The notes under the pieces: model-generated
The model's input: the letters and a program-made list of their open reading frames with translations, nothing else
What the model was told of the DNA's origin: nothing
Databases searched by the model: none
In this document: in pieces, positions 2,936 through 45,194 of the stretch
How the letters are laid out: every line of letters begins with the position of its first letter
How positions within the stretch are numbered: the first letter of the stretch is position 1
Position numbers and translations under genes: made by a program
Source: an uncultured Candidatus Saccharibacteria bacterium
GTDB lineage: Bacteria; Patescibacteriota; Minisyncoccia; Minisyncoccales; PEYH01
Direction of reading: 5' to 3'
Length of the DNA stretch: 45,194 bases
Assembly: GCA_964388775.1 (NCBI GenBank)
Contig: CAYMBW010000003.1
Location: forward strand, 1 to 45,194

Positions 2936-3045
2936 ACACAAATTACGAAAATGATAACGAATTATAAAAGATATAGTTTTTCCCTTCCCGCTAATGTGGA
3001 AATTTGCTAACATATAATTATAAAAGTTTTTTAATCAACGCAACC

Positions 3046-4564: not shown

Positions 4565-4657
4565 TTATATTTTAGCAAATTGCTTCGCGATTAAAGAATC
4601 ATACATTAACCAATGCGGCATATCTGGCTCCGCTGCGCCAGGGAAATTTGTTATCGG

Positions 4658-7421: not shown

Positions 7422-7766
7422 ATGTTTTCAAGAATAGACCGGCTTAATGAGCTTTTAAAAAGAGAAATAGGAAATATTCTTTTAAGAGAGGAGGGGTTTG
7501 ATAGGAATATTTTAGTGACAATAACTAAAGTGGATATTTCAGGCGATTTAAGCGAAGCGAAAGTGTTTGTAAGCGTGATGCCGGCGGATAGGAGGCAGGA
7601 GATAATGAGTTCTCTTAAGGGAGATATATATAACATCCAGAAAATATTGGACAGAAAGATGCGTATAAAAAAGATTCCTAAAATAATCTTTTGTGAGGAA
7701 AAACAAGTGGAAGAGGCGGGCAGGATTGAAGAGTTATTGTCAGGAATCCATAAGAATGGCAAATGA
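7422..7766 (+). CDS. rbfA: Ribosome-binding factor A
   Basis: About 114 aa. N-terminal RLNELLKREIGNIL signature. Lies directly after infB. Confidence 0.8.
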   Translation: MFSRIDRLNELLKREIGNILLREEGFDRNILVTITKVDISGDLSEAKVFVSVMPADRRQEIMSSLKGDIYNIQKILDRKMRIKKIPKIIFCEEKQVEEAGRIEELLSGIHKNGK

Positions 7767-7847
7767 TAACTAATAACTAATAACTAATAACTAATAATTA
7801 ATCATTGATAATTGATAACTAATACTTGATTATTGATAATTGATTAT
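7764..7847 (+). repeat. Period-7 heptamer array, 12 in-phase units
   Basis: TGATAAC TAATAAC x3 TAATAAT TAATCAT TGATAAT TGATAAC TAATACT TGATTAT TGATAAT TGATTAT. The first TGA is the rbfA stop codon. Confidence 0.9.
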
Positions 7848-7851
7848 TTTG

Positions 7852-8033: not shown

Positions 8034-8807
8034 ATGGGAAGAATATCGATAAAAAAAATAAATAGAGACTTTTTTAAGACATGGAACCATGAAATGGCAT
8101 ATGTTTTGGGATATATTGTGGCAGATGGATGTGTTTATAAACGGAAAGATCGTAAAAACAGTTATGTTCTTAATATAACCTCAAAAGATAGGCAACATTT
8201 ATTAAATATTGGGTTAAACATAGTAGCCAATTGCTCTATAAGCACAAAACGCAATTCTACAGGAGATCAATATTGTCAAATCCAAGTATGCAGTAGGGAA
8301 ATTTGTGAAGACTTGATGGGGATAGGAATATTCCCCAGGAAAACGCATAATTTAGATTCTATAGAAGTTCCAGAAAAATATTTTTCTGATTTCGCTCGCG
8401 GATTTTTTGACGGAGATGGAACAGTATATATTTATGAAGTAAATAATACACAACAGATTAAGGCAGGTTTCGTAAGTTCTAGTTTGCCGTTTATAACAAG
8501 ATTTAATCAATCGCTTTGTCATAGATTAGCCATTCCAACAAAGTTTATTCATCAAACAATAGACAGGAAAGGAGTCAAAATTCCAAAATACGATATTTGT
8601 TTTTATGTTGACGATTGTGAAAAATTGTTTAGACTTATGTATAGAGATAATCCGAAGTTGTTTCTTTTTCGCAAGTACGAAATTTTTGAAAAATGGAATT
8701 TTGTCAAAAGGAGACACTATAAGAAGCAGAATTATCCTTCTAAAATCGGATGGCATTTAAATAAAAATAAAGGGGCGGTTAGCTCAGTTGGTAGAGCGCA
8801 TACTTGA
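8034..8807 (+). CDS. LAGLIDADG-family homing endonuclease-like protein (two-motif, monomeric type)
   Basis: Two LAGLIDADG motifs: YVLGYIVADGCV and FARGFFDGDGTV. The ORF fills the tRNA-Leu/tRNA-Val spacer, and its last 35 nt overlap tRNA-Val. Confidence 0.8.
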   Translation: MGRISIKKINRDFFKTWNHEMAYVLGYIVADGCVYKRKDRKNSYVLNITSKDRQHLLNIGLNIVANCSISTKRNSTGDQYCQIQVCSREICEDLMGIGIFPRKTHNLDSIEVPEKYFSDFARGFFDGDGTVYIYEVNNTQQIKAGFVSSSLPFITRFNQSLCHRLAIPTKFIHQTIDRKGVKIPKYDICFYVDDCEKLFRLMYRDNPKLFLFRKYEIFEKWNFVKRRHYKKQNYPSKIGWHLNKNKGAVSSVGRAHT

Positions 8808-9258: not shown

Positions 9259-9339
9259 CCAAAGATTCGCCAATTTGGCGTTTTTTTGTTGAAAAATTCT
9301 AAAACCGCACTATGTGTGTGCATATATTACCTAAAACCC

Positions 9340-11482: not shown

Positions 11483-11556
11483 TGGGCATGGATGGACTCG
11501 AACCATCGACCTTCCGATTATAAGTCGGATGCTCTAACCAACTGAGCTACATGCCC
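11483..11556 (-). tRNA. tRNA-Ile(TAT)
   Basis: The reverse complement reads GGGCATG TA GCTC AGTTGGTT AGAGC A TCCGA CTTATAA TCGGA AGGTC GATGG TTCGAGT CCATC CATGCCC A. The anticodon is UAU. Confidence 0.85.
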
Positions 11557-14611: not shown

Positions 14612-14719
14612 GAGGAGTTAAAAGTTAAAAGTTAAAAATCCCAAAGCCAAAATTTTTTCCATTCTTAGATTTTCATTTGTCATTTTTCGTTTTACATTTT
14701 TATTTTTTGGTTTTTGGCG

Positions 14720-15660: not shown

Positions 15661-18600
15661 ATGCCAAAATTAAATCCGGAAAAAAATAACAAGAATAAGA
15701 AGGCCGTTCACGAAAATAGCGAAGAGGTGTCAAATAATATAGGGTATATAAAGCCCAGAGAGGTTAGCGAGGAGATGAAAGAGAGCTACATTGATTATGC
15801 GATGTCGGTAATTGTTTCCCGCGCGCTGCCTGATGTAAGAGATGGATTGAAGCCGGTCCACCGGAGAATCCTTTATGCGATGGGAGAGGAGGGTCTTTAT
15901 TATAACGCAAGGTTTAGAAAGTCAGCCACGGTGGTTGGCGCAGTGCTTGGGCGATACCATCCCCACAGCGATACTGCGGTTTATGATTCTTTGGTAAGGA
16001 TGGCGCAGGATTTCTCTTTAAGATATATGCTGGTAAAAGGTCAAGGCAATTTTGGATGTTTCACGGGAGATACCGAAATCAAATTATGTGACGGACGAAA
16101 TTTAAACTTTGAGGATTTGGTTAAAGAACAAAAGAACGGCAAAAGGCATTGGGGATTTGCGTTTAATCATGAAAGCGGAGAAATAGAGATAGCAGAAATC
16201 AAAAAAGCCAGATTAACCAGAAAAAAAGAAAAGATTATGGAAGTGGCCCTGGACAACGGAGAAAAGATTAGGTGTACAATAGATCACCGCTTTATGTTGA
16301 GGAATGGCAGCTACAGACAGGCTCAAGATTTAGCAAAGGGAGATTCCTTGATGCCACTCTATATCAAGCATTATGATGGGGCGGAGGATTTGAATGTTAA
16401 AGGATATGAAATGGCGTATCAGCCGACTAAAAACCATTGGGATTTTATTCATAGATTATCAGATGAGTGGAATTTAAAGAATGGAATTTATAAAGTTGGC
16501 GCTGGAAGAATAAGGCACCATAAGGATTTTAATAAATTTAATAATAACCCAGACAATATTTTACGGATACAATGGGAAGATCATTGGAAAAAACATAAAG
16601 AAATTGCCTCTTCTCGTCACAAAAATGATGCGGAATATGTTGCTAAAATTGCAGAGGGAAGAGAGAAATTTTGGAGTAATCCAAAAAATAGAGAGGCCTA
16701 CTCACGACGAATGTCAGAATCAAATAGAAAGATGTGGAAAAATGTGGGTCGCAGAGCAATATGGATAGAAGCAATGATGAAAAAATGGCGGAACCCGGAA
16801 TACAAGGAATTTATGAGGCAAATGTCAAGCGAAAATCTGAAAAGATTATGGGGAAAAAAGGATTTTCAAGAATTAATGAGCAACCTTAAATCGGCAGAGA
16901 TGAAAGAAAGGTGGCAAGACGAAAAATACAGGGCTCAAATGGCAGAGTATACGAGAATGCTTTCTTTGAAACTATGGGCCAATCCAAAACATAGAGAGCA
17001 TATTTCAAAATTGATGAAGGAGAAATTCCAAGACCCAGCGGTTAGAGAAGGATTGAGCTACCGAGCTAAGAAGCTATGGGCTAACCCTGAATATCGTGCT
17101 AAATATCCTCCAGACCATTTCAAGAAAATGCACGATAAATTGTGGAGTAATCCCGAAATACGCAAATTACACAGAGAGAAAGCTATTAAGCAATGGCAGG
17201 CCCAGGACTTCAGGGATAAATTTATACAAGGCGTAATAAGAGCGAATAAGTATAGGATAGCAGAGAATCCGGAGTATATGAATAATTTAGCAGATAAGGC
17301 CCGGATTTCTCTAAAAAATAAATGGAAAGACCCCCTCTATCAAGAAAGAGTTATTAAGAGTAGGATTTTGGGCTATGCGCATTCTCTTTATCAGAAATAC
17401 GGCAAGATTACTCCGGAGATTTACGAAGAGAAGAGGAGTTTCTCTATTCCGAAAATAGAAAACGCTCTGAATTATTTTAATGATTTTTCAGAGATTGCAG
17501 AGAAAGCCCAAATATATAATCATAAAATAGTTAAAACAAAGATTCTTCGTAGGAGGGAAGACGTCTATGATGTGAGTGTTGATTGTTACCATAATTTTGC
17601 TTTGGGAGCTGGTGTTTTTGTCCATAACTCGATTGATGGGGACCCTCCATCTGCAATGAGATATTCGGAGGCGAAATTGTCCAAAATCGGGCAAGAGATG
17701 TTGAGAGACATAAACAAAGGCACGGTTGATTTCATAGACAATTATGATTCTACCAGAAAAGAACCGACGGTCTTGCCGTCTCCCCTTCCCCAACTTCTAT
17801 TAAACGGCTCATTGGGAATTGCAGTCGGTATGGCGACAAGCATCCCTCCTCACAATCTTGTGGAGACATGTGATGCAGCCATATATTTAATTGATAATCC
17901 GGAAGCGACAACCGAGGAATTGTTTCAATTTATAAAAGGTCCTGATTTTCCAACCGGAGGCATTATTTTCAATCAAAAAGAAATAATCTCTGCTTATGCC
18001 CAAGGAAAGGGGCCTGTTTTGATTCGGGGCAAGGCGGAGATTGTCGAGGAGAAAAAAGGGGGGTGGAAGATTATTATTAATGAAATACCTTATCAGGTTA
18101 ATAAGGCCACTTTGGTAGGTCAGATAGCCAAACTGATTCAGGAAAAGAAAATTAAAGGGGTGAGAGACGCCAGAGATGAATCAGATAGAGAAGGCATCAG
18201 AATCGTTATAGAATTGAAGAAAGAAGCGTTTCCTCAGAAGGTTTTGAATTGCTTATACAAAGCCACCGACTTGCAGAAAAAATTCCATCTTAATATGTTA
18301 GCCCTGGTTGATGGAATTCAACCCAAGGTTTTATCTTTGGCGGAAATGCTCGGATATTTCTTAAAACACCGTCAGGAGGTGGTTTTGAGGAGAGCCAAAT
18401 TTGATTTAGCCAAAGCCAAGGCAAGAGAGCATATTCTTTTGGGGTTGGCAAAATGTTTGGCAAATATTGACCAAGTTATTGAAACCATTAAGAAATCCAA
18501 AAACCGGGAAGACGCCAAGAGTAATCTTAAGAAAAAATTCAAACTTACCGACATTCAGGCAGAAGCCATTTTAGAGACCAAACTTTCTGCCTTAGCCCGG

Positions 18601-19737
18601 CTTGAGAGGCAAAAAATAGAAGCAGAGCTTAAGGAGATACAAGCCAAAATTGAAGAATTGTCTGAAGTTATTAAAAGTCCGGCAAAGATAAAGGCAGTTA
18701 TTAAACAAGAACTCAAAGAATTAAAAGAATCCTATCCTGACGCGCGCCGAACCAAGGTGTATAGGAAAAACGCGGAAGAAATATCAGAAGAGGACTTGGT
18801 AGCGGAAGAAGAGGTTTTAATTACTCTTACCAATAAGGGCTATGTCAAAAGAGTGAGCCCTTCTTCCTATAAGATTCAAAAGAGAGGCGGGAAAGGCATT
18901 GCCGGCATTAAGACCCATGATGATGATTTTGTAGAACATTTTTTCTTGGCGAATACGCTTGATAAATTATTGGTTTTTACCGATTCGGGCAAGGTTTTTT
19001 CAATGCCCGCTTATGAAGTGCCTTCCGCGACCAGAATTTCAAAAGGCAGAGCATTGGTCAATTTTCTGGAAATCAGCCCGGAAGATAAAATTTTAGCGGT
19101 TTTGTCTCTTGGGAAGAAGGACGACAGCGAACAGATGAAATATTTAGTGATGGCGACCAAGAATGGTATAATTAAAAGAACCGCGCTTGAAGAGTTCCGC
19201 AATTTGAGGAGTTCCGGTTTGATAGCGATTCGGCTTAAGAAGGGCGATTCTTTGAGGTCTGTTAAAAAGACAAGCGGTAAAAGCGAAATAATTTTAGTAA
19301 GCAAGCAGGCCCAGTCAATCAGATTCAAAGAAGAACAGATAAGGCCGATGCAGAGAAGCGCTGCCGGCAACAAGGGAATGCATCTCAAGAAAGATGATGA
19401 GGTAATCGGAATGGAGGCGGTTGAGCAAGACCAAGACAAGGATTATATTTTAATAGTGACTAGCAAAGGATACGGGAAGAGAAGTAGAATCTCCACTTAT
19501 CGCCAGCAAAGCAGAGGAGGGACCGGGATTATGACAGCCAAATTGACCGCCAAGACAGGGGATTTGGTTAAGGCGGAAATCGTTAAAGGAGATGAAGAGT
19601 TAATATTCATATCAAGAAAAGGTCAGGTTATAAGGACTACGGCCAAAGGGATATCCGTGCTCGGCAGAGCGACTCAAGGAGTTAGGATAATGCGCTTAGA
19701 CGAGGGCGACAAAGTCATTTCATTAATAAAATTGTAG
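15661..19737 (+). CDS. gyrA: DNA gyrase subunit A, interrupted by a 524-aa intein
   Basis: Exteins carry the GyrA signatures [27 protein letters not shown] / [17 protein letters not shown], and C-terminal beta-pinwheel repeats. Exteins total 834 aa. Confidence 0.95.
16057..17628 (+). mobile_element. Intein (Hint splicing domain plus HNH-type endonuclease plus tandem W-x-NPEYR repeat array)
   Basis: Starts [10 protein letters not shown] (block A). Has the TxxH block CTIDHRF. Ends [22 protein letters not shown], followed by +1 Ser. HNH-like segment [27 protein letters not shown] at about 16504-16600. Confidence 0.9.
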
Positions 19738-24166: not shown

Positions 24167-24220
24167 TATTCGTTGCGCTCAAATTAAAAGTTAAAAAATA
24201 AAAATTAAAAATAAAAAAAA

Positions 24221-24276: not shown

Positions 24277-24297
24277 TGTTAGGGTGCGACCCTAACA
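24277..24297. repeat. GC-rich palindrome TGTTAGGGT-GCG-ACCCTAACA (family copy 2)
   Basis: Perfect 9-bp stem. This is the reverse-complement version of copy 1 (loop GCG versus CGC). A partial left arm TTGTTAGTGTCAGA lies at 24258-24272. Confidence 0.9.
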
Positions 24298-26745: not shown

Positions 26746-27465
26746 TTATTGGAGTGGTTGGCGCATGCCGTAAATTTTTAATTTGTTAATCTTTTTGAAT
26801 TCGTATAGGACAACAAGGAACAAGCCGAAAAGCATTGATATTATAATTACTGCCTTAGACCATCCTTCTATTGTTATAGCAAGATTATATACCCCGTGCA
26901 AGACAATTGAAGCAGTTAATCCGAGGAGAAAAAGAAATGTATTTTTCTTTTTTTTGATAAGAGAGAGGGCTAAAAAGAATCCGATGTTTGCCGAACAAAG
27001 AGCATGCAGAAAAGTGGCGCCAATAAATCTTCCGCTTAAAGCCAGAACCGTTTTTTGTAAAAGTTCCGGTTCCTGTAGAGTACAGAGGACCAGGATATTC
27101 TCTAACGCGGCGAATCCCAGTCCGGCGATAATCATATAAATCATCGCGTCTATCGGTTCGTCAAACGCGGGGTCCTTCAGTATTCTGAACTTTATGATTA
27201 AATATTTTGCCACTTCTTCAACCAAAGCGACCCCCAGCAGAAAATAGATTGCCAGCATTACGGCAGAGGACAGGTCAAAGTTTTTGAGTACATTTACAAA
27301 GCCCCATTCTATCAGAGCGACCGGGAGAGTAATTGCCATTCCGTAAATAAATATTTTTATGACCATTTCGTTCGGCTCGGGCCTCTTGTCTTTTCTAAGA
27401 TAAAATAGCAGCCAGACAACGCTGGGGACAAGGCCGAGAATTACGAAAATAGGGTATTGGAACAT
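26746..27465 (-). CDS. PrsW-family intramembrane protease
   Basis: Polytopic membrane protein with EEVAKY (the EExxK motif) and HALCSAN (the HxxxxxN motif). Confidence 0.6.
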   Translation of the reverse strand: MFQYPIFVILGLVPSVVWLLFYLRKDKRPEPNEMVIKIFIYGMAITLPVALIEWGFVNVLKNFDLSSAVMLAIYFLLGVALVEEVAKYLIIKFRILKDPAFDEPIDAMIYMIIAGLGFAALENILVLCTLQEPELLQKTVLALSGRFIGATFLHALCSANIGFFLALSLIKKKKNTFLFLLGLTASIVLHGVYNLAITIEGWSKAVIIISMLFGLFLVVLYEFKKINKLKIYGMRQPLQ

Positions 27466-27467
27466 AA

Positions 27468-27598
27468 TTTAATTAATAATCAGTTATCACTTATCACTAA
27501 TCATTTATCAATGATCAATTATCGGTTATTAATGATTAATGATCAGTTGTCAGTTATCAGTTATCAATTATCAATGATTAATGATCAGTTATCACTGA
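27468..27598 (-). repeat. Period-7 heptamer array, about 18 in-phase units (largest in window)
   Basis: The plus strand reads ATCAGTT ATCACTT ATCACTA ATCATTT ATCAATG ATCAATT ATCGGTT ATTAATG ATTAATG ATCAGTT GTCAGTT ATCAGTT ATCAATT ATCAATG ATTAATG ATCAGTT ATCACTG. The tsaD stop and its last 4 codons lie inside the array. Confidence 0.9.
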
Positions 27599-28814
27599 TG
27601 CGGAGGTTTGGCTCTGCCTTGATTTTTTCCCATTTCATCGCTCTTTTGCCGGGGGTTTGCAGATACGCAGCCATCGCTATCATCGCTGCGTTATCAGTGC
27701 AAAATTTATTGATAGAAACAATAAATTTGGCCTTTGGGTTGTATTCTTGAACCTTTCTCTCAAATTGTATTCTTAATTCTTTGTTCGCTGCCACGCCCCC
27801 GCCAAGCATAATTGTTTCTACCCTATAATCCTTTACTGCTTTAATGGTTTTTTTTATCAAGACATCAATAACCGATTGCTGGGCCTCTTTCGCCATTGCC
27901 TGAATATATTTTTTTGATTTTCTAATTTTAGGGCTTCGCTTTAGATAATCATACAATACTGCGGTTTTAAGTCCAGAGAAGCTAAAGTCATAATCCTTAG
28001 TCCTAAACATCGGTCTTGGCAGTTTTATTGATAATTGATTGTTTGCCCGCCTCGGGCGGGTTGATAATTTTTCGGCTTGTTGAGCGATAATTGGTCCTCC
28101 CGGATAGCCAAGGCCGAGGATTCTTGCTATCTTATCAAACGCTTCGCCAGCGGCATCATCTCTTGTTTCCCCTAATATTTTGTATTGCCCGATTTTTTTG
28201 ATGAGAATAATCTGCGTGTGCCCCCCGCTTACGATTAAGGCAATGGCCGGAAATTTTATTATATTTTTGGCAGATTGTTTTGCATTTTTCGTTTTGCATT
28301 TTGTGTTCTCGCCAATTTTTGGTAAAAAATTGGCGAGGATGTGTCCCTCAATATGGTTGACGGGAATTATCGGGATGTTCCACCAATAGGCGAGCGTTTT
28401 GGCGAAATTGACTCCGGTCCACAAACAAGGGTCAAGTCCGGGCCCTATTGTCACTGCGATATAATCAATCCTCGGCTTCTGATATTTCGCCAGAAATTTT
28501 GTTGTTTTTTCAAGCAAGATTTTTTCTCTTCCTAATATTTCTTTTATTTTTGAATTTTTATCTGTAATTTTTAATTTTTCACTTTTAACTTTTAATTTAA
28601 GCATATTCGTTTCCGTTAAGCTTTGCTCTAAAAGCATAATCAGGTTTTTCTGATGTTCTCTCTTTGCCAGGGTCGGATACACTCCTCCCCATTTTTTATG
28701 AATTTTTACTTGCGACGAGATGAGATTAGACAGCAATTTAAAATCTTTGGCAGAACCGTCTGCCAAAGCAATACAAGTATCATCGCAAGATGTTTCAATG
28801 GCTAAAATTTTCAT
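27585..28814 (-). CDS. tsaD: tRNA N6-adenosine threonylcarbamoyltransferase TsaD with repeat-derived insertions
   Basis: MKILAIETSCDDT start, HIEGHI metal motif, LIVSGGHTQ, and YPGGP. At 409 aa it is longer than the roughly 340 aa typical of the family. Confidence 0.9.
   Translation of the reverse strand: MKILAIETSCDDTCIALADGSAKDFKLLSNLISSQVKIHKKWGGVYPTLAKREHQKNLIMLLEQSLTETNMLKLKVKSEKLKITDKNSKIKEILGREKILLEKTTKFLAKYQKPRIDYIAVTIGPGLDPCLWTGVNFAKTLAYWWNIPIIPVNHIEGHILANFLPKIGENTKCKTKNAKQSAKNIIKFPAIALIVSGGHTQIILIKKIGQYKILGETRDDAAGEAFDKIARILGLGYPGGPIIAQQAEKLSTRPRRANNQLSIKLPRPMFRTKDYDFSFSGLKTAVLYDYLKRSPKIRKSKKYIQAMAKEAQQSVIDVLIKKTIKAVKDYRVETIMLGGGVAANKELRIQFERKVQEYNPKAKFIVSINKFCTDNAAMIAMAAYLQTPGKRAMKWEKIKAEPNLRISDN
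28046..28060. repeat. GC palindrome CCCGCC-TCG-GGCGGG inside tsaD
   Basis: Perfect 6-bp stem with a 3-nt loop, flanked by TTGATAATTGATTG and TTGATAATT. The same 16-mer GCCCGCCTCGGGCGGG occurs at 44494. Confidence 0.85.
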
Positions 28815-28873
28815 TGTTTATTTAGGATATCAAGACCCTTGAATTTTTACAACTTTTTATCTATCATAAAGCC

Positions 28874-28951
28874 ATTATCAATGATCAGTTATTAGTTATT
28901 AGTTATTATTGATTAGTGATAAGTGATTAGTTATTATTGATTAGTGATTAA
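28874..28951 (+). repeat. Period-7 heptamer array (about 11 units)
   Basis: ATTATCA ATGATCA GTTATTA GTTATTA GTTATTA TTGATTA GTGATAA GTGATTA GTTATTA TTGATTA GTGATTA. Confidence 0.85.
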
Positions 28952-28954
28952 CTT

Positions 28955-29026
28955 GGCCCTATCGTCTAATGGTTAGGACATCAGGTTTTCAACCTGACGA
29001 CCGGGGTTCGACTCCCCGTAGGGCCG
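28955..29026 (+). tRNA. tRNA-Glu(TTC)
   Basis: Acceptor GGCCCTA/TAGGGCC, anticodon arm TCAGG-TTTTCAA-CCTGA, T-arm CGGGG-TTCGACT-CCCCG, discriminator G. Confidence 0.9.
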
Positions 29027-29129
29027 TATTAGAAGAAGTTAGCGAGCAAAGCGAGCTTACTTATTTTTATACCACGCCGAAGCCCCGAGCTGAAGGCGAG
29101 GGGCGAAGGAGGGTTATCCCTACTTTTCT
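29027..29129 (+). repeat. tRNA-trailer structured repeat, copy R3
   Basis: TATTAGAAGAAGTTAGCGAGCAAAGCGAGCTTACTTATTTTTATA...CCCCGAGCTGAAGGCGAGGGGCGAAGGAGGG shares its box and centre with R1 and R2. Confidence 0.7.
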
Positions 29130-30704
29130 ATGTCCGATAAATACTATCTAAGAATTGCTTTTGCCTCTGATTTGAAAAAGACAAGGGAGCGGCTTTTCTA
29201 CCGTTTTTTAGAAATGTTGCCCGGCTTAATGACTTGGGCAAGTTTCGTTGGCGCCATTTTGCTCTCTTATTTCAAACCCATTTGGGTCTCTATTTTTATT
29301 ATTGTTTTTGTAATATATTGGCTCTCTAAAACAATATATTTTTCATTCCATATGAGAGTAAGCTACCGAAGGATGAAACAGAACAAGAAGATCGATTGGC
29401 CGGACAAACTAAATGGGCTCAATATTTTTTCTAAAGATTTATCGATAAATCATTGGCAAGAGATTTACCACTTAGTAGTGCTGCCAATGTATAAAGAGCC
29501 ATATGAGGTGGTGCGGGACTCCCTAAAATCGCTTTTGGCGACCGATTATCCCAAAGAGAAAATGATTGTTTTTTTGGCCCAAGAGGAAAGGGCTGGAAGC
29601 GATTTTAATAATGAATTGGCGCAGAAGATAAATCAGGAATTCCAAAACAGCTTTTGTCGATTTTCTATTACTGTCCACCCAAAAGACCGGCCCGGGGAGA
29701 TAGCGGCCAAATCTTCAAATGAAACCTGGGCAGCCAGAAAGGGCGAAGAGTTGATATCTGGACTCAATATCCCTTTTGAAAAGATTATTTTTTCGTCTTT
29801 TGACATAGACACGGTTGTTTCCCCCAATTATTTCAGTTGTCTTACCTATCACTATCTCACCACCCCGAAGCCGCTGCGAACCAGCTTTCAGCCAATACCT
29901 TTATTTTTGAATAATGTCTGGCAGGCCCCGGGGATATCAAGGATTTTTTCTTTTTCTTCAAGTTTTTGGCATCTGATTAATCAGGAAAGGCCTGAAAAGT
30001 TGATAACCTTTTCATCGCACTCAATGCCTTTTAGGGCGTTAGTGGATGTTGGATTTAAACAGACAGATGTTGTTTCTGATGATTCCCGGATTTTTTGGCA
30101 ATGTTTTTTATTCTACGATGGCGATTACCGCGTCGAGCCGTTGCATTGCTCCATATCAATGGATGCCAACGCAGCGGAAACATTTCCCAGAACAATTATT
30201 AATATGTATAAACAACAGCGGAGATGGGCTTATGGCGCAGGAGAAATCGCTTATTTTATTTTTGGTTTTTGGAAGAATAAAAAAATATCTCTCAAAAGAA
30301 AGATTACTTTGGCGTTTGAAATTATAGAAGGGCACTGGAACTGGGCTTGCGCCCCTATCCTTATCTTCGTCCTTGGTTGGCTGCCGATTTATTTTGGCGG
30401 GGCGGAATTCACTCAGACCGTTTTTTCCTATAATCTACCCAAGATACTCGGCAGAATTTTGACCGTCTCAATGTTTGGTCTGGTTCTATCTATGTATTAC
30501 AGCTTTTATCTCTTGCCCCCAAAGCCCGACACGAAGAAGCAAAAACTGAATCTTTTATGGGCTTGCTCACAGTGGGTGCTATTGCCTCTTACAATGATAT
30601 TTCTTACCGCTTTCCCGGCCATAGATGCCCAGACAAGATTGCTTTTAGGAAAATATATGGGGTTTTGGCCTACCCCAAAGCACAGAAAAATAATTAATAA
30701 TTAA
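29130..30704 (+). CDS. Membrane-bound family-2 glycosyltransferase (processive, cellulose/chitin-synthase-like)
   Basis: N- and C-terminal TM helices flank a GT-A domain that carries the QQRRW (QxxRW) motif. Confidence 0.7.
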   Translation: MSDKYYLRIAFASDLKKTRERLFYRFLEMLPGLMTWASFVGAILLSYFKPIWVSIFIIVFVIYWLSKTIYFSFHMRVSYRRMKQNKKIDWPDKLNGLNIFSKDLSINHWQEIYHLVVLPMYKEPYEVVRDSLKSLLATDYPKEKMIVFLAQEERAGSDFNNELAQKINQEFQNSFCRFSITVHPKDRPGEIAAKSSNETWAARKGEELISGLNIPFEKIIFSSFDIDTVVSPNYFSCLTYHYLTTPKPLRTSFQPIPLFLNNVWQAPGISRIFSFSSSFWHLINQERPEKLITFSSHSMPFRALVDVGFKQTDVVSDDSRIFWQCFLFYDGDYRVEPLHCSISMDANAAETFPRTIINMYKQQRRWAYGAGEIAYFIFGFWKNKKISLKRKITLAFEIIEGHWNWACAPILIFVLGWLPIYFGGAEFTQTVFSYNLPKILGRILTVSMFGLVLSMYYSFYLLPPKPDTKKQKLNLLWACSQWVLLPLTMIFLTAFPAIDAQTRLLLGKYMGFWPTPKHRKIINN

Positions 30705-30744
30705 TGATTAGTGATTAATTATTATTAATTACTGATTAATCATT
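30691..30744 (+). repeat. Period-7 heptamer array between convergent genes
   Basis: ...AATGATT AGTGATT AATTATT ATTAATT ACTGATT AATCATT. Contains the GT2 stop codon and abuts the recG stop codon. Confidence 0.8.
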
Positions 30745-32893: not shown

Positions 32894-32916
32894 TTGTTAG
32901 GGTCAGACCCTAACAA
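32894..32916. repeat. GC-rich palindrome TTGTTAGGGT-CAG-ACCCTAACAA (family copy 3)
   Basis: Perfect 10-bp stem with a 3-nt loop. Confidence 0.9.
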
Positions 32917-35920: not shown

Positions 35921-36445
35921 ATGAAATACGCTATTATTATTGTCGCCATAAGCATATTGATTTCCCTGATATTGGGCGTTTTCTTAGTTTGGCCCAGCTA
36001 TCGGGGTTTCAGCGAAACCCAGAATCAGTTAGTTCAGAGAAAATTGCAATTAGAAAATCAGAACAAATACATTCAATCGCTGAAAACCGCTAAACAAGAA
36101 ATGGACGAGCGAGGGGAAATAGTTTCTAAGGTTGAGAGTGCTCTCCCTATTGGTCCCGATATGCCTTCTTTGCTTGAGTTTTTGCAAAATGCCGCTGTTT
36201 CATCAGGCGTTAGCTTGGATAAGATTAGTTGGGAGGATACTTCTCCGCGCAACGAAAAAGATAGAATCAAGGAGCATTTTTTTAGTGTCGAAGTGGCTGC
36301 TTCATATTTTTCATTCAAAAACTTTTTATTTGCCCTTGAGACAAGCTCCCGATTGATAAATATAGAAGAAGTGAATTTTAATGTGCCAGTCGCCGAAGGG
36401 CAGTCATCCTTAATTAAGATTAGAGCAAGCATTAGTTCGTACTGA
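35921..36445 (+). CDS. pilO: PilO-like bitopic pilus alignment protein
   Basis: N-terminal TM, a coiled-coil (QLVQRKLQLENQNKYIQSLK) and a C-terminal globular part. Assignment rests on its position after pilN. Confidence 0.5.
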   Translation: MKYAIIIVAISILISLILGVFLVWPSYRGFSETQNQLVQRKLQLENQNKYIQSLKTAKQEMDERGEIVSKVESALPIGPDMPSLLEFLQNAAVSSGVSLDKISWEDTSPRNEKDRIKEHFFSVEVAASYFSFKNFLFALETSSRLINIEEVNFNVPVAEGQSSLIKIRASISSY

Positions 36446-36491
36446 TAACTGATAACTGATAACTGATAAATGATTAATAATAAGTGATTAA
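36443..36491 (+). repeat. Period-7 heptamer array, 7 units
   Basis: TGATAAC x3 TGATAAA TGATTAA TAATAAG TGATTAA. The first TGA is the pilO stop, and the array ends 2 nt before the next ATG. Confidence 0.9.
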
Positions 36492-36493
36492 TT

Positions 36494-36781
36494 ATGGCCA
36501 TAGTGTTTTATCAAAAAAAGAAAAAAGAAATTTATATAGCAATTGCTGGATTGCTTTTGATTACCGCGCTTATTTTTGTTCTCATTAAAATTAAAGGAGG
36601 CGGATTTGTTGCAAAAGAATCAACCTTATCTGTTCCGGAAGCCAAGGAAGTAAAGATAGATTTTCAAAAGATAGAGGAGGAAATTTGGAACGACCTGAAA
36701 ACATTTACTCCGATTTCTCCTTCTCCAGAGGGCATGGGGAGGGATAATCCTTTTGCTCCTCCGCTTCCAGCAGCAAAGTGA
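36494..36781 (+). CDS. Small bitopic protein of the pilus locus (possible PilP-like role)
   Basis: 95 aa, one TM (IAIAGLLLITALIFVLI), and a C-terminal GRDNPFAPP motif reminiscent of R-[DN]-P-F motifs in pilus accessory proteins. Confidence 0.35.
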   Translation: MAIVFYQKKKKEIYIAIAGLLLITALIFVLIKIKGGGFVAKESTLSVPEAKEVKIDFQKIEEEIWNDLKTFTPISPSPEGMGRDNPFAPPLPAAK

Positions 36782-36854: not shown

Positions 36855-38588
36855 ATGAATTTAATAAACCAGCTGTTAAAACAAAAGCTTGTTAATAAAA
36901 AGACGGCCGATGCTTTGGTGGAAGAATCCGAGGCCTCCGGACGAACCGTTGAGGAGATGATATTAAGCAAGCAACTATTGCCGGAGAACAAGCTATTTCG
37001 GATAAAGAGCGACATTTTGGCTATTCCTTTAAAAGAAATTATCTCGCAAGATATCCCTGCTGATATTTTAGAGCTTATCCCGCAGGATTCCGCTGAACAT
37101 TATAAGATGGTTCCTTTGGAAAAGAAACAGAATATGCTGGAAGTGGCAATGGTTTATCCGGAAGACCTAAAGGCCCAAGAGGCCTTAAATTTTTTAGCCC
37201 GGCAGCGAGGATTCAATTATCGAGTGAGTTTGATTACTCTTAGCGGGTTTCAAGATTTTTTAAAAAAATATCAAAATTTAGGAAGAGAGGTCAAAACCGC
37301 TCTTCAAGAATTAGAGAGCCAGCTTCAACCCGGACCCCGGGAATCCACACTAAGAAGCACAAAAGAAATAATTCAAAAGAGGAGTGAAGCGCCTATTAGC
37401 AAGACCGTTGCTGTTATTTTAAAGCACGCGGTTGAAGGCAGAGCGTCAGATATACATATAGAGCCAATGTCGGAGAGGAGCAGAGTAAGATTTCGGTTAG
37501 ATGGCATCCTGCATTCCAGCTTATTTCTTCCCAAAGAGGTTCATCCTTCTATCGTGGCCAGGATTAAGATTATTTCTAAGTTAAAAATAGACGAAACGCG
37601 TATTCCTCAAGACGGCAGATTTTCTGTTAATATAGATAATCAAAATATTGATTTTAGGGTTTCAACATTTCCAACGACTCTGGGCGAAAAAGTGGTAATG
37701 AGGGTGCTTAATCCTGATTTAAGGGTTTCCACTTTTGAAGAATTAGGGCTTGCCGGAAGGAATCTGGAGATTTTGAAAAGAGCGGCCAAAAGGCCTTATG
37801 GTATGATTCTGTCAACCGGGCCGACTGGCTCCGGTAAAACCACTACCCTGTATGTGGTTCTGGACTCTGTTAATAAAGAAGGCGTCAATATCGTTACCCT
37901 GGAAGACCCGGTGGAATATTTTATTAGCGGGGTAAGTCAATCGCAAGTCAAACCGGAAATTGGTTATAGCTTCGCCACAGGGTTAAGACATGTTTTGAGG
38001 CAGGACCCTGATATAATCATGGTCGGAGAGATTCGCGACAATGAAACTGCGGAATTGGCTACACACTCAGCGCTTACCGGTCATTTAGTCCTTTCTACTA
38101 TTCATACTAATAATGCTTTGGGCGCAATTCCAAGAATGATTGATTTGGGCGTTAGGGCGTTCTTACTGCCTTCCAGCATCAATGTGATAATGGCCCAGAG
38201 ATTAGTGAGACGGCTTTGTCCCCATTGCAAGAAAAAGATAGCAGCAAGCGAAAAAGTGAAGGAATTGATTACTGAAGAGATGAAGAATCTGCCAGCTTGG
38301 GCCAAGGATGAATATGGAACCGGAACAAATATTCAAATTTGGGAACCGGTCGGTTGCAGTCAGTGCGGAGAAAGCGGGTATATCGGAAGAGTTGGAATAT
38401 TTGAGATTTTAGAAATGACCAAAGGGCTTGGAGATATAATTATGTCCGAGCCGAGCGAGAAGAGTATGTCAGTCGAGGCCCACAATCAAGGAATGATAAA
38501 TATGAGACAGGACGGAGTATTAAAAGTTTTGAAAGGGGTGACTTCCATAGAGGAAGTTGTTAGAAGCACTTCAGAAGACAGAGATTAA
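36855..38588 (+). CDS. pilB: Type IV pilus assembly ATPase PilB (GspE family)
   Basis: N-terminal GSPII_E-N-like domain, Walker A GPTGSGKTT, Asp/His boxes, Walker B IIMVGEIRD, and a tetracysteine CPHC...CSQC motif. Confidence 0.9.
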   Translation: MNLINQLLKQKLVNKKTADALVEESEASGRTVEEMILSKQLLPENKLFRIKSDILAIPLKEIISQDIPADILELIPQDSAEHYKMVPLEKKQNMLEVAMVYPEDLKAQEALNFLARQRGFNYRVSLITLSGFQDFLKKYQNLGREVKTALQELESQLQPGPRESTLRSTKEIIQKRSEAPISKTVAVILKHAVEGRASDIHIEPMSERSRVRFRLDGILHSSLFLPKEVHPSIVARIKIISKLKIDETRIPQDGRFSVNIDNQNIDFRVSTFPTTLGEKVVMRVLNPDLRVSTFEELGLAGRNLEILKRAAKRPYGMILSTGPTGSGKTTTLYVVLDSVNKEGVNIVTLEDPVEYFISGVSQSQVKPEIGYSFATGLRHVLRQDPDIIMVGEIRDNETAELATHSALTGHLVLSTIHTNNALGAIPRMIDLGVRAFLLPSSINVIMAQRLVRRLCPHCKKKIAASEKVKELITEEMKNLPAWAKDEYGTGTNIQIWEPVGCSQCGESGYIGRVGIFEILEMTKGLGDIIMSEPSEKSMSVEAHNQGMINMRQDGVLKVLKGVTSIEEVVRSTSEDRD

Positions 38589-38614
38589 TAATTGATAATT
38601 AATTATTGGAAGAT

Positions 38615-42520: not shown

Positions 42521-42531
42521 GCCCAAGGCAT

Positions 42532-42566
42532 TGATTACTGATTATTGATTAATGATTATTTATTAT
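42532..42566 (+). repeat. Period-7 heptamer array containing the pilD start codon
   Basis: TGATTAC TGATTAT TGATTAA TGATTAT TTATTAT. The ATG at 42552 spans a unit junction (TGATTA-A TG-ATTAT). Confidence 0.85.
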
Positions 42567-43337
42567 TTATCTATTTTCATATTCGGTCTTATTGTGGGTT
42601 CTTTTTTGAACTGCGTGATTTACCGGCTGGAAAAAAAAGAGAGTTTTTTGCGAGGCCGGTCATATTGCCCTCATTGCAAACACCCTCTGGCTTGGTATGA
42701 CTTGATTCCCTTATTAAGTTTTATTTTTTTAAGGCGCCGATGCCGTTATTGCCATAAGCCCATCTCTTGGCAGTATCCCATCGTAGAACTGGCTACAGGA
42801 TTTTTATTTACCCTCCCCCTCTTCTCCTCCCCCTCCCAATGGGAGGGGGAGGTTTGGTGGGGGTGGTTTTTTTATTTATTGATTGCCTGTTTCTTGATTA
42901 TTATTTTCGTTTATGACTTGAAGCACTTTACTATTCTGGATAAGGTTTTGATTCCGGCAATCATATTGTCAGTTTTTTATCGCGTCTTGGAGCTAATAAT
43001 TAATAATCAATTATCAATTATCAATTATTTTTGCGCTGCTTTGGGAGCGGCCGGATTTTTTCTTTTAATATACTTAATCTCCAAAGGGAAATGGATTGGA
43101 TTTGCCGATGTTAAATTAGCAATACTTTTAGGGCTAATCTTGGGTTGGCCTAAAATAGGCCTGTCTTTGTTTTTAAGTTTTTTTATCGGTGCTATAATAG
43201 GAATAGGCCTGGTGGTTTTCTCGGACAAAAAGTTTAAAAGTGAAATTCCTTTTGCTCCATTTTTGATAACAGGCGCGTTAATTTCGCTTTTTTGGGGACA
43301 AGGCCTGATTAATTGGTATCTTTCATTGATTTTCTAA
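42552..43337 (+). CDS. pilD: Prepilin peptidase PilD (A24 family) with repeat-derived in-frame segments
   Basis: N-terminal CPHC...CRYC zinc-binding region, the first catalytic Asp context VYDLKH, and the second catalytic Asp in GFADVKL. Polytopic membrane protein. Confidence 0.85.
   Translation: MIIYYLSIFIFGLIVGSFLNCVIYRLEKKESFLRGRSYCPHCKHPLAWYDLIPLLSFIFLRRRCRYCHKPISWQYPIVELATGFLFTLPLFSSPSQWEGEVWWGWFFYLLIACFLIIIFVYDLKHFTILDKVLIPAIILSVFYRVLELIINNQLSIINYFCAALGAAGFFLLIYLISKGKWIGFADVKLAILLGLILGWPKIGLSLFLSFFIGAIIGIGLVVFSDKKFKSEIPFAPFLITGALISLFWGQGLINWYLSLIF
42826..42852. repeat. Perfect 12-bp palindrome CCTCCCCCTCCC-AAT-GGGAGGGGGAGG inside pilD
   Basis: Read directly. It is in frame and encodes part of SSPSQWEGEVW. 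Confidence 0.9.
42993..43030 (-). repeat. Heptamer array segment inside the pilD coding sequence
   Basis: AATAATT AATAATC AATTATC AATTATC AATTATT encodes LIINNQLSIINYF. Confidence 0.8.
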
Positions 43338-43340
43338 TTT

Positions 43341-43392
43341 TTGATTATTGATAAATTATTACTGATAAATTATTATTGATTAGTGATTAATG
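43341..43392 (+). repeat. Period-7 heptamer array containing the next start codon
   Basis: TGATTAT TGATAAA TTATTAC TGATAAA TTATTAT TGATTAG TGATTAA TG. The ATG at 43390 is formed by the array. Confidence 0.85.
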
Positions 43393-43938
43393 ACAAATAA
43401 TTACCGGCAAACAATTAGCAAAGAAAAAGGGATGACCCTGATTGAAATTTTGGTAACTACGGCGATAATAGGAACTCTGTTGGCAGTTAGTTTTTTAAGC
43501 TATCGGCCGAGAGGGCAGGAGCTTGCTTTGCAAAGGTCTGCCTTTAAAATCGCGGCCGACATAGAAAGCGTCAGAGAAATGGCAATGTCAGCCCAAAAGG
43601 ACTCCAGCGGAGATATCCCTGCTGGCGGTTATGGCATTTATTTTGACACCACAAACCCCTTTAACTACATTCTTTTTGCTGACTTAGATGCCAGCAAAAG
43701 CAGAAAGTCGGACGGCTCTGAAGACGTGAAAAGTGTGGAAATAGAAAAAGGGTTGGTGTTAAAAACGCTTTCCCCGTCTAATCCCGCAAATATTACATTT
43801 GTTCCGCCGTCGCCGAATGTTTATCTGCAAGGAGGCACAATCATCGGCCAAGTTGACATCATAATAGCTATACAAACAGACCCTTCTAAAACAAAGACAA
43901 TCATTGTGAACAAGGCGGGTCTGATTTCCACGAATTAA
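43390..43938 (+). CDS. Minor pilin / pseudopilin (GspH/FimT-like)
   Basis: Leader ...SKEKG/MTLIEILVTTAIIGTLLAV, a class III signal with Glu at +5. Confidence 0.7.
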   Translation: MTNNYRQTISKEKGMTLIEILVTTAIIGTLLAVSFLSYRPRGQELALQRSAFKIAADIESVREMAMSAQKDSSGDIPAGGYGIYFDTTNPFNYILFADLDASKSRKSDGSEDVKSVEIEKGLVLKTLSPSNPANITFVPPSPNVYLQGGTIIGQVDIIIAIQTDPSKTKTIIVNKAGLISTN

Positions 43939-43945
43939 TTATTCT

Positions 43946-43966
43946 TGATTAATGATTAATGATAAC
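43946..43966 (+). repeat. Three exact-phase heptamers containing a start codon
   Basis: TGATTAA TGATTAA TGATAAC. The ATG at 43952 gives the N-terminus MINDN. Confidence 0.85.
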
Positions 43967-44510: not shown

Positions 44511-44546
44511 TCGGTCAAACTAAAAATGTAAAATGAAAAATATAAA

Positions 44547-45098
44547 ATGAGAGACAGAATATATAGGAACAAAAATAATAAGGAGAAGGGCTTTACGCTG
44601 ATTGAAATTATTGTTGTGACAGGGATATTCAGTGTTTTAATGATAGCCATTTCCGGGATTTTTATTGCCGCCCTTCGGGCAGAGAGGAATGTACTTGCAT
44701 CTAAAAAGGTTTTGGGCGAATTGAGCTATGTCACGGAATATATGACCCGCGCCTTGAGAATGGCCGATAAAGACAGCTCTGGTTCTTGTATTCCTGTCGG
44801 CTCTAATTATCAATTAACAGCAAGAGGCGGTATAAAATTTGTTAATGCTCTTCAATTGGACGCCTGCCAAGAATTTTTTGTAGATGGCACGATAATCAAG
44901 TATCAGACAGGGACGGAAGAGCTTGACCTAACTTCTTCCGATATAAATATTTCAGCGTTAAATTTCGAGATTATTAACGAAACAGAGTCAGACAATCTTC
45001 AGCCATTTGTAACTATGCAGATAGAGGCGAGCGCGCCCAATAGCGCTACTCTTCATCTTCAGACCAGCGTTTCCCAAAGAAACCCGGATATTAGATAA
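44547..45098 (+). CDS. Minor pilin / pseudopilin (PilW-like)
   Basis: ...NNKEKG/FTLIEIIVVTGIFSVLMIAISGIF class III signal. Confidence 0.7.
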   Translation: MRDRIYRNKNNKEKGFTLIEIIVVTGIFSVLMIAISGIFIAALRAERNVLASKKVLGELSYVTEYMTRALRMADKDSSGSCIPVGSNYQLTARGGIKFVNALQLDACQEFFVDGTIIKYQTGTEELDLTSSDINISALNFEIINETESDNLQPFVTMQIEASAPNSATLHLQTSVSQRNPDIR

Positions 45099-45109
45099 TA
45101 ATCACTAAT

Positions 45110-45132
45110 CTGTTAGGGTCTGACCCTAACAG
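45110..45132. repeat. GC-rich palindrome CTGTTAGGGT-CTG-ACCCTAACAG (family copy 4)
   Basis: Perfect 10-bp stem. This is the reverse-complement version of copy 3 (loop CTG versus CAG), flanked by heptamer-like sequence. Confidence 0.9.
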
Positions 45133-45152
45133 CCAACAATTATCAATAATAA

Positions 45153-45194
45153 ATGATTAATAATTCGGAAAAAGGAGCCACTCTATATTTTGCT
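45153..45194 (+). CDS. Start of a further ORF (possible additional minor pilin), truncated by window end
   Basis: ATG inside a heptamer unit (AAATGATTAATAATT) gives MINNSEKGATLYFA. Only 14 codons are visible. Confidence 0.25.
   Translation, partial: MINNSEKGATLYFA

Follow-up and report, generated by a model that had tools for sequence, protein, structure and literature searches.

The 45,194-nt stretch of DNA analyzed here (contig CAYMBW010000003.1, positions 1–45,194; hereafter, the window) carries, at positions 27468–27598, an array of in-phase 7-nt units that separates tsaD from the PrsW gene and supplies the stop codon of the first and the start codon of the second. What generates such an array, and does it serve the genes that it separates? 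Units of the form T-[G/A]-A-T-[A/T]-A-N, summarized as TGATWAN in an earlier reading made from the letters alone (the sequence-only reading), form further intergenic arrays across the window. These period-7 arrays are real and statistically overwhelming, and we think it probable that they were produced by lineage-specific heptamer slippage filtered by selection and that they serve as permissive spacers.

The window encodes tyrS, infB, rbfA, rplS, ftsH, rpsA, gyrA with an intein, tsaD, recG, type IV pilus components, and type IV secretion system (T4SS)-pilin-like proteins, and approximately 8% of it is non-coding. Its TsaD homologs carry the names Patescibacteria or Candidatus Nealsonbacteria; these names and the gene set therefore point to a Parcubacteria-type genome of the Patescibacteria, or candidate phyla radiation (CPR). 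A genetic code with reassigned TGA did not fit, as TAA, TGA, and TAG end 29, 8, and 6 genes, respectively, and the proteins are full length under table 11.

Period-7 arrays at gene junctions

Tandem Repeats Finder (TRF) reported period-7 arrays at 534–606, 7764–7848, 27467–27599, 28875–28950, 30689–30744, 36441–36492, 38584–38607, 42530–42567, 43342–43404, and 43934–43963, together with the derived periods 14, 21, 28, 35, and 42, and TGATWAN units became visible when the sequences were laid out in blocks of 7. The sequence-only reading had listed at least 11 such sites. Approximately ten of these junctions were recovered by TRF and by the layout; the partly repetitive site at 45096–45170 was the sole one without a TRF period-7 array and is weak, and two sites of three units each are short.

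In intergenic DNA (3.8 kb of non-coding sequence), identity at lag 7 was 0.375 and was echoed at lags 14, 21, and 28; in coding DNA, the lag-7 identity was 0.26. Dinucleotide-preserving shuffles of each intergenic segment gave a lag-7 identity of 0.289 ± 0.007 (z = 11.8), so the autocorrelation exceeds that of shuffled intergenic DNA, the test that had been suggested for it, and nine intergenic segments have a lag-7 z of their own of 4.4–9.8. TGATWA runs were defined as at least three uninterrupted in-phase units, each with at least 5 of 6 matches to TGATWA. Fourteen runs (81 units) were found in 4.9 kb of intergenic DNA, for which shuffles give 0.15, and one in 39 kb of coding DNA, an approximately 100-fold higher intergenic density. 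When exact tandem duplications were sorted by unit length, an excess was present at k = 7 alone, with 27 in the window against 4.3 expected and 13 against 2.0 expected in the relative L006; units of k = 8–15 gave no excess in either, and the syntenic relatives L007 and L009 showed no tandem-duplication excess. Of the non-redundant TRF arrays, 13 of 17 in the window, 8 of 14 in L006, and none in L007 and L009 had period 7. Isolated heptamer duplications outside the arrays (approximately 7 coding sites against approximately 4 expected) were too weak to use. The excess at k = 7 only supports the proposal that the period reflects a specific mechanism rather than plain AT richness. An assembly artifact was ruled out because the JGI, ENA, and Logan assemblies of this species, each made independently, contain identical arrays.

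Four positions of the unit are nearly fixed: positions 1, 3, 4, and 6 are constant in 81, 81, 80, and 81 of 82 units, respectively, and positions 2, 5, and 7 vary freely (1.5% change at the former versus more than 30% at the latter). The commonest unit, TGATAAC, accounts for 11 of the 82, a further 16 are one mismatch away, and all units are in phase.

The array at 27468–27598 (minus strand, approximately 17–18 units, z = 9.8) is sense to both tsaD and PrsW and occupies the entire 119-nt spacer. It codes for the last TsaD residues (…SDN) and the TGA stop at 27585–27587, and its final TAATTAAATT-ATG is the PrsW start; the TsaD C terminus reads …RISDN* in the window array and …RIAD*, …RITD*, or …RID* in relatives. 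The array has a 42-nt higher-order structure, the first two rows both reading (…AAC TGATCAT TAATCAT …), which argues for block duplication, and another array has a 28-nt higher-order structure.

Stop codons are also supplied elsewhere, as the sequence-only reading had noticed for rbfA, pilO, tsaD, and GT2. The first TGA of the 7764–7847 array (plus strand, 12 units, lag-7 identity 0.79, z = 7.7) is the rbfA stop (7764); this array ends 4 nt short of tRNA-Cys (7852) and is unchanged in eight sister contigs. At 36443–36491 (plus strand, 7 units), the first TGA is the pilO stop (36443), the final TGATTAATT-ATG starts the next gene (36494), and positions 36443–36463 form the sole perfect run, (TGATAAC)x3. 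The array at the convergent GT2–recG junction (30691–30744, plus strand, approximately 7 units) holds the GT2 TAA stop at 30702–30704 and adjoins the recG stop.

The ATGs at 42552, 43390, 43952, and 45153 lie within arrays or at their edges, and the gene calls on sister contigs agree with these starts. Five units at 42532–42566 (plus strand) include the pilD start (42552) and first codons, and a 261-aa pilD was called on the sister contig L207. Approximately 7 units at 43341–43392 (plus strand, z = 4.4) fill the whole spacer from pilD to a pilin gene, the last unit giving the ATG at 43390, and three units at 43946–43966 (plus strand) encode the start (43952) and leader, MINDN-G|FTLIE, of a prepilin. 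The N termini of the MIN(D/N) type that had been pointed out earlier (MIND…, MINN…) are supplied by arrays in this way. The weak site at 45096–45170, to which no strand was assigned, is mixed, with two short heptamer stretches around a GC hairpin, CTGTTAGGGTCTGACCCTAACAG, and the ATG at 45153 starting the next gene. Three units at 38585–38607 (plus strand), between the pilB stop and a response-regulator gene, are short and weak alone. The pilD open reading frame (ORF) itself also contains an array: approximately 4 units at 42996–43028 (minus strand) are antisense, stop-free, and translated as …LIINNQLSIINY….

Three arrays adjoin tRNA genes, at 534/536, 7847/7852, and 28951/28954. The 536–606 array (minus strand, approximately 10 units, lag-7 identity 0.72, z = 7.7) lies between tRNA-Ala (461–534) and tyrS (614). 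Most of its units (TGATTAT/TGATTAG on the minus strand) run antisense to these two genes; the last ones switch to sense and form an AU hairpin, and the array is unchanged in four sister contigs. The 28874–28951 array (plus strand, approximately 10 units of TGATTAG/TTATTAG, z = 7.2) is sense to tRNA-Glu (28954) and sits between that gene and a conserved box, GGCTTTAT[A/G]ATAGA. The box (GGCTT[T/C]AT[A/G]ATAGA) is kept in all relatives and is probably a divergent promoter; with this putative promoter on one side and the tRNA on the other, the array is most likely the transcribed pre-tRNA-Glu leader. A description of this array as two opposed halves was dropped as ambiguous, since its 5′ units can be taken for sense TTATTAG or, equally well, for the reverse complement, antisense TAATAAC, and an inverted-repeat finder returned nothing over 27400–29100.

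Spurious ORFs run through the arrays on the stop-free antisense strand at 27457–27750 (plus strand) and 36073–36501 (minus strand). Gene callers also disagree on identical sequence over the start of PrsW (206 versus 239 aa), of recG (710 versus 729 aa), and of a beta-lactamase-family gene at 4613–5749 (360 versus 378 aa). Heptamer arrays can thus mislead gene callers, both through spurious antisense ORFs and through ambiguous start sites.

Array length in strains and relatives

The lone difference among otherwise identical contigs was a 7-nt indel at 36443, where (TGATAAC)x3 is x2 in contig L002. Ten of the 11 arrays were invariant across 4–8 contigs from different samples, and the arrays are therefore not hypervariable in the population. 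This indel, in the array downstream of pilO, bears on the view that the arrays are phase-variation (contingency) loci, in which gain or loss of units would switch their neighbors, in particular those that encode the type IV pilus and pilins. The pilus gene cluster harbors five arrays, and a period of 7 is not a multiple of 3, both in keeping with such switching. The invariance of the other ten arrays speaks against it, as do the degeneracy of the units, which suppresses slippage, and the location of the arrays between ORFs, with the largest at housekeeping junctions (rbfA, tsaD, tyrS, and recG). We found no consequence of the single indel for a reading frame or promoter spacing, and phase variation was rejected as a scarcely credible explanation. 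In common with the tetranucleotide and other simple sequence repeat (SSR) contingency loci of Haemophilus, Neisseria, and Moraxella, the arrays are short tandem repeats that change by slippage, with one polymorphism in the window; unlike those loci, they are degenerate and stable in the population, lie at housekeeping junctions, and are not positioned so as to shift a frame or change the spacing of a promoter.

Growth of the arrays was observed at the tsaD→PrsW junction, which was compared among relatives with conserved gene order. The spacer is 2 nt in L009 (TsaD 63% identical to that of the window) and 7 nt in L007 (71%), with no units in either. It is 36 nt with approximately 3–4 units in L210 (72%), 52 nt with approximately 7 units in L209 (77%), 59 nt with approximately 8–9 units in L006 (78%), and 119 nt with approximately 17 units in the window itself (the reference, 100%). 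All arrays in this series share the 3′ end TGATTAA(N)TT-ATG, and the array-free relatives hold seed-like sequence (ATAACAGATTAG-ATAATCT-ATG, and GATTAATTAAATT-ATG at pilO). The comparison of array lengths at an orthologous junction that had been suggested from the sequence thus gave a graded series, and this series and the clean strain indel uphold the idea of slippage-prone spacers, one of several roles floated at that time. All relatives from a metagenome scan had identities of 58% or less. A mobile element, such as a miniature inverted-repeat transposable element, is an unlikely source, given that the arrays have no shared termini and grew from local seeds.

Other heptamer families are present in the window and its relatives, some of them inside tsaD. 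Stop-free period-7 units (AAATTAA/AAGTTAA) at 28542–28598 (minus strand) encode TsaD residues 73–91, and an AATGCAA-type array at 28277–28307 (minus strand) encodes residues 170–180. The latter falls within an 11–14-aa TsaD insertion that is missing from L007 and L009, and L006 tsaD has AAAACGC units at that position. Outside tsaD, (TTTAACT)x3 of the AAAGTTA family (14616–14637, minus strand) stops 5 nt before the ribosomal protein S1 gene starts, 5.4 units of AAATTAA/AAAGTTA type (24181–24218, plus strand) lie downstream of tRNA-Leu, and 3.9 units of AAAATGT type (44523–44549, plus strand) end in a unit that holds the pilin start ATG at 44547. At junctions where the window has TGATWAN arrays, L006 carries TAAAGCG (recG/GT2) and TTTTGAA/ATTGAAA (tRNA-Glu leader), and more distant Parcubacteria carry sporadic A-rich heptamer arrays, several of them within tsaD.

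In this Parcubacteria clade, TsaD (window, 27585–28814; L006, 10217–10776; L209, 829–1168; also L130, L132, L135, L137, and L140) has lineage-variable loops derived from period-7 DNA repeats, such as KLKVKSEKLKITDKNSKIK and NTKCKTKNAKQ. Translation of these loops passes through all three frames of a single heptamer in turn, and DNA slippage therefore creates protein insertions in an essential protein. Positions 1–9500 of L205, which lie upstream of the window on its contig, include another type IV pilus cluster, with pilB, pilC, genes for two large pilin-like proteins, pilM, and others, tightly packed without TGATWAN arrays; at 9303–9342 of L205, two tRNAs are separated by a TTAAAAG x5.9 array.

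In the reading that we favor, the arrays would have arisen in place. Short seeds at gene ends and starts, including stop codons such as TGA-TAA, the AT-rich leader GATTAATT-ATG, and the …ITD* codons of tsaD, would have been duplicated through slipped-strand mispairing, at first 7 nt at a time and later as blocks of several units, and point mutation would afterwards have blurred the units. The lineage would be markedly prone to 7-nt tandem duplication of many sequences, at that length only, and selection would act as a filter that decides where each unit persists. Because 7 is not a multiple of 3, a forward TGATWAN array closes all three frames within 21 nt, and the reverse complement can be open in all frames. 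Units of this type, which contain TGA and/or TAA, would survive only in spacers or antisense inside ORFs; stop-free units (AAGTTAA, AAAACGC, and AATTATC) could also survive in variable protein loops. We infer that slippage is the generating mechanism and that the arrays are transcribed and near-neutral. They would be A/U-rich, mostly permissive spacers that passively give stops, starts, a few terminal residues (…SDN*, MIND…, and MINN…), and, where they are long or mixed in orientation, AU hairpins, and we do not think that they are a dedicated regulatory device.

If this account is correct, an active mutational process specific to one length reshapes the gene boundaries of a streamlined CPR genome, which tolerates it. 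Overlap-type junctions of 2 nt would become 119-nt spacers, and the same process would donate stops, starts, and prepilin leader residues and insert peptide loops into the essential TsaD.

Possible roles of the arrays

The sequence-only reading held that most arrays (approximately 8 of 10) point toward the downstream gene. Scored by TGAT versus ATCA counts, the arrays are sense at 7 of 9 co-directional junctions, but 536–606 is antisense and 45096–45170 is mixed. The start codon lies inside the array or 0–10 nt beyond it for PrsW, the 36494 gene, pilD, and the 43390 and 43952 pilins. Sense orientation and proximity to starts are both features to be expected of RNA cis-elements, as hypothesized by MacGregor: an RNA-binding protein, whether ribosomal protein S1, a Csp-like protein, or some other, would bind leader or inter-cistronic repeats, and binding would recruit or modulate ribosomes or guide 70S re-initiation or scanning, as part of a post-transcriptional network. 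The nearly invariant T.AT.A. skeleton, the unstructured nature of the short pure arrays, the retention of arrays at the same junctions across species, and the presence of genes without Shine-Dalgarno sites fit this explanation as well, and it has literature precedent, in the form of hypotheses and of reporter effects in Nostoc.

Several findings make RNA cis-elements a rather unlikely explanation. The absence of Shine-Dalgarno sites from array junctions, remarked on earlier, is true, but nearly all 43 window genes lack one, so the array junctions are not special. Most genes without a Shine-Dalgarno site are also without an array, so arrays are unneeded for initiation, and the suggestion that they are translation-initiation regions was not supported: they do not replace Shine-Dalgarno sites, which are scarce throughout the genome. 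The accompanying idea of unstructured regions failed for the long mixed arrays, which fold into more structure than shuffled sequence. Three arrays flank tRNAs, and translation can therefore not be their sole role; another fills a convergent junction. Sister species with the same gene order have unrelated heptamers, or none, at the same junction. The sense orientation itself is largely forced, because many arrays have a stop or start codon built into them.

Rotated by 1 nt, the skeleton TNATNAN is its own complement and so looks the same on both strands, a symmetry that would suit double-stranded DNA sites for a multimerizing protein, such as an omega-like, nucleoid-associated, or Fur-like factor. 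Both orientations occur, and some sites are promoter-proximal, such as that in the tsaD/tRNA-Glu divergent region. There is a precedent in omega, a ribbon-helix-helix repressor from inc18 plasmids that covers stretches of 7-bp heptads whatever their orientation; its operators are contiguous WATCACW heptads, at least 2 and typically 7–10, in direct or inverted arrangement. The window arrays are likewise contiguous 7-bp arrays, but they are chromosomal, intra-operonic, and dispersed, and their motif is another: WATCACW was matched by 12 of approximately 85 units and never by more than two in a row. Fur/PerR boxes were not matched either, whether as the 19-bp GATAATGATAATCATTATC (up to 3 mismatches) or the 7-1-7 TGATAATnATTATCA (up to 2 mismatches), and no ribbon-helix-helix or Fur gene was found among the 40 of 43 window ORFs scanned with Pfam. 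Omega-type operators and Fur/PerR boxes were rejected on these grounds. Most arrays are inside operons between co-directional genes, and unit identity is not conserved at orthologous sites. The unrelated heptamers that sister species bear at these junctions fit poorly with a conserved, sequence-specific binding array, and the regulatory-protein binding arrays considered in the sequence-only reading, along with double-stranded DNA sites in general, appear improbable.

Folding of the array at the convergent GT2–recG junction gave an AU-rich hairpin of −13.2 kcal/mol (z = −4.2), and L006 has inverted TAAAGCG/CGCTTTA heptamers at the same junction. These hairpins could be terminators, and a few promoter-like matches are present within arrays (43348, 28909, and 27595/27567 on the minus strand), so that the arrays might provide transcription signals, either TTGATA/GATAAT promoters or AU-hairpin terminators. 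However, a period of 7 spaces the hexamers by 15 or 22 nt rather than 17. The excess of promoter-like matches is modest (62 versus 44 ± 7), and such hexamers are not notably concentrated in the arrays, contrary to the earlier suggestion that arrays are a source of them. The array hairpins are without GC stems and U-tails, and most arrays are internal to operons. A role in transcription is accordingly very improbable.

Three further comparisons were negative. A gathering-threshold Rfam scan of the window returned tRNAs only and nothing at the arrays. TIGR-Tas arrays, which are found in CPR bacteria and phages, need units of approximately 36 nt with edge and loop repeats, dual spacers, and a tas gene with a Nop domain; the arrays here have period 7 and its multiples only and occupy more than ten dispersed junctions, and there is no Nop-domain gene in the window. 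A replication origin with clustered DnaA boxes was rejected because of the same dispersal over more than ten junctions, the lack of a dnaA gene in the window, and a cumulative GC skew that climbs along nearly all of the window and nowhere turns as it would at an origin.

Slippage filtered by selection remains the reading that we favor, and the following points weigh against it. The near-invariance of positions 1, 3, 4, and 6 is not predicted by simple neutral decay and hints at a binding factor, at stop-codon content, or at ongoing homogenization. TGATWAN dominates the intergenic arrays of this species, although other heptamers are possible, and arrays persist at the same junctions across species in which TsaD is only 72%–78% identical. 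The 7/9 sense bias was not seen in other phyla, where a crude survey of perfect TAACTGA arrays, rotations of the TGATAAC unit, at co-directional junctions gave 17 sense and 20 antisense; the bias is thus not generalizable and could reflect lineage-specific use. Inside ORFs of other phyla, the same survey gave 9 antisense and 0 sense. Deletion of heptamer repeats in Nostoc altered reporter expression, so the arrays may have some function.

Either the near-invariant, strand-symmetric skeleton T-x-A-T-x-A-x (82 units at 10 loci), which was kept while several species diverged, or the peculiar 7-nt duplication could reflect something novel, which we rate, the two taken jointly, as an unlikely prospect. 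A lineage-specific factor may recognize the arrays as operon punctuation, with three-frame termination followed by 70S re-initiation, or with RNA processing beside mRNAs and tRNAs. Alternatively, a replisome or repair property may duplicate exactly 7 nt, a cause that would be shared across phyla. Were operon punctuation to prove correct, ultra-small CPR bacteria would have a Shine-Dalgarno-independent expression grammar, possibly convergent with that of Cyanobacteria, Bacteroidetes, and Beggiatoaceae.

Other features of the window were recorded in passing. GATC is approximately 8-fold under-represented, with 20 sites against 164 ± 11 in shuffles, and 4 of the 20 lie within heptamer arrays (27513, 27541, 27583, and 28883). 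An N6/N4 DNA methylase gene (3719–4564) overlaps an upstream ORF of unknown function (3004–3735), and because of this overlap a restriction-modification system may be the cause of GATC avoidance. A dispersed perfect palindromic hairpin, GTTAGGGT-NNN-ACCCTAAC, occurs in four copies against 0 expected (394–412, 24278–24296, 32896–32914, and 45112–45130). All are intergenic or at gene edges, in locations that adjoin tRNAs, precede the shorter recG start, or follow a pilin gene, and the element is REP-like or terminator-like; the same pattern with a 4-nt rather than a 3-nt loop had no match in the window. In the 1358-aa product of gyrA (15661–19737), the topoisomerase domain is interrupted by an intein splicing domain, and GyrA of L009 is intein-free (827 aa). 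Free-standing LAGLIDADG endonuclease ORFs lie among tRNA genes, and their number and position differ between relatives (window, 8034–8807; L006, 4686–5666; L007, 3623–4561; L009, 3285–4217 and 4849–5787); that of the window is flanked by tRNA-Leu and tRNA-Val and overlaps the call of the latter. ARAGORN predicted a tRNA-Ile with anticodon UAU at 11483–11556, which is unusual for bacteria, as they normally decode AUA by a lysidine-modified CAU tRNA.

Comparison with TAACTGA and other heptamer repeats

The commonest unit of the window, TGATAAC, is a rotation of TAACTGA, an identity that the sequence-only reading had missed. TAACTGA forms abundant intergenic direct repeats in Candidatus Maribeggiatoa and other Beggiatoaceae and is also present in Thiocystis, 15 Cyanobacteria, and 5 Bacteroidetes (MacGregor, 2015; PMC4679880). 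Those repeats are at least two tandem copies, sometimes split by related 7-mers; they are mostly forward and end approximately 1 nt before start codons, at junctions with few Shine-Dalgarno sites. In the forward direction they read LITDN-stop, so overlap with ORF ends is brief (at most 18 nt), and reverse copies occur inside ORFs. Cyanothece strains differ by 7-nt indels, Microcystis mixes TAACTGA with other heptamers, and an origin by horizontal transfer was proposed (PMC4679880).

The hallmarks of these repeats all recur in the window arrays. They include a tandem run, (TGATAAC)x3, with related 7-mers interspersed in both cases, and they are predominantly intergenic (14 runs in 4.9 kb against 1 in 39 kb of coding DNA). 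They lie forward near start codons, in a small sample in which three arrays face tRNAs. ORF ends overlap the arrays as …(T/S)DN-stop, and reverse copies inside ORFs are of the SIINYQL type; the antisense array within pilD reads …QLSIINY…, the reverse reading of TAATTGA tabulated in PMC4679880. Indels of 7 nt between close strains are common to both, and so is the scarcity of Shine-Dalgarno sites, which is not discriminating here, as nearly all window genes lack them. The window arrays differ in that the units are far more degenerate, with only positions 1, 3, 4, and 6 fixed, that arrays reach approximately 18 units versus 2–6 in BOGUAY, that three arrays adjoin tRNA genes, and that the lineage makes several other heptamer families, some in coding loops.

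The host, as one of the Patescibacteria, falls outside the range known for TAACTGA, a range that is descriptive rather than defining and is extended here. A scan for perfect (TGATAAC)x4 in 185,579 species genomes found at least 120 stretches. The matches listed were mostly from Cyanobacteria (Microcystis, Okeania, Scytonema, and Nostocales), Bacteroidota, and Parabeggiatoa, with others scattered among Acidobacteriota, Chloroflexota, Verrucomicrobiota, Planctomycetota, and Desulfobacterales, and none of those listed was from Patescibacteria. A search of the accessible literature found no paper tying heptamer repeats to Patescibacteria, which are thus apparently a new host lineage for an already known kind of element; the TAACTGA repeat is extended to a fourth, very distant lineage. 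In IMG/VR, 44 contigs (L161–L204) carry perfect (TGATAAC)x4, some in several arrays, an observation that bears on horizontal transfer of TAACTGA. Because growth in place can be traced across relatives, the graded series favors independent growth over the horizontal-transfer origin proposed for the repeat.

Heptamers are also known from wider classes of repeats. Mrázek et al. (2007), as summarized in PMC4679880, described long SSRs with 5–11-nt units in prokaryotes, and Cyanobacteria have short tandemly repeated heptamers (STRR), including the TTTTGAA and GACYAAT repeats of Nostoc (bioRxiv 10.1101/2022.06.06.494920), which the TTTTGAA-type units of L006 resemble. Judging from that summary, the window falls within the long SSR class, having tandem runs of 5–11-nt units beyond what composition predicts, and it shares with long SSRs and STRRs the dominance of heptamers, a sporadic lineage-specific distribution, a mostly non-coding location near starts, and polymerase slippage as the proposed origin. 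Compared with the repeats so summarized, the window arrays belong to a small, streamlined genome and fill whole spacers, into the stop and start codons. The growth series bears on why heptamers dominate the longer SSRs of bacteria. The window arrays are a more degenerate and longer version of TAACTGA repeats, within the heptanucleotide long SSR class, and they add to the known repeat a graded growth series, a duplication excess confined to k = 7, insertions built of heptamers in TsaD, and a skeleton of four fixed positions.

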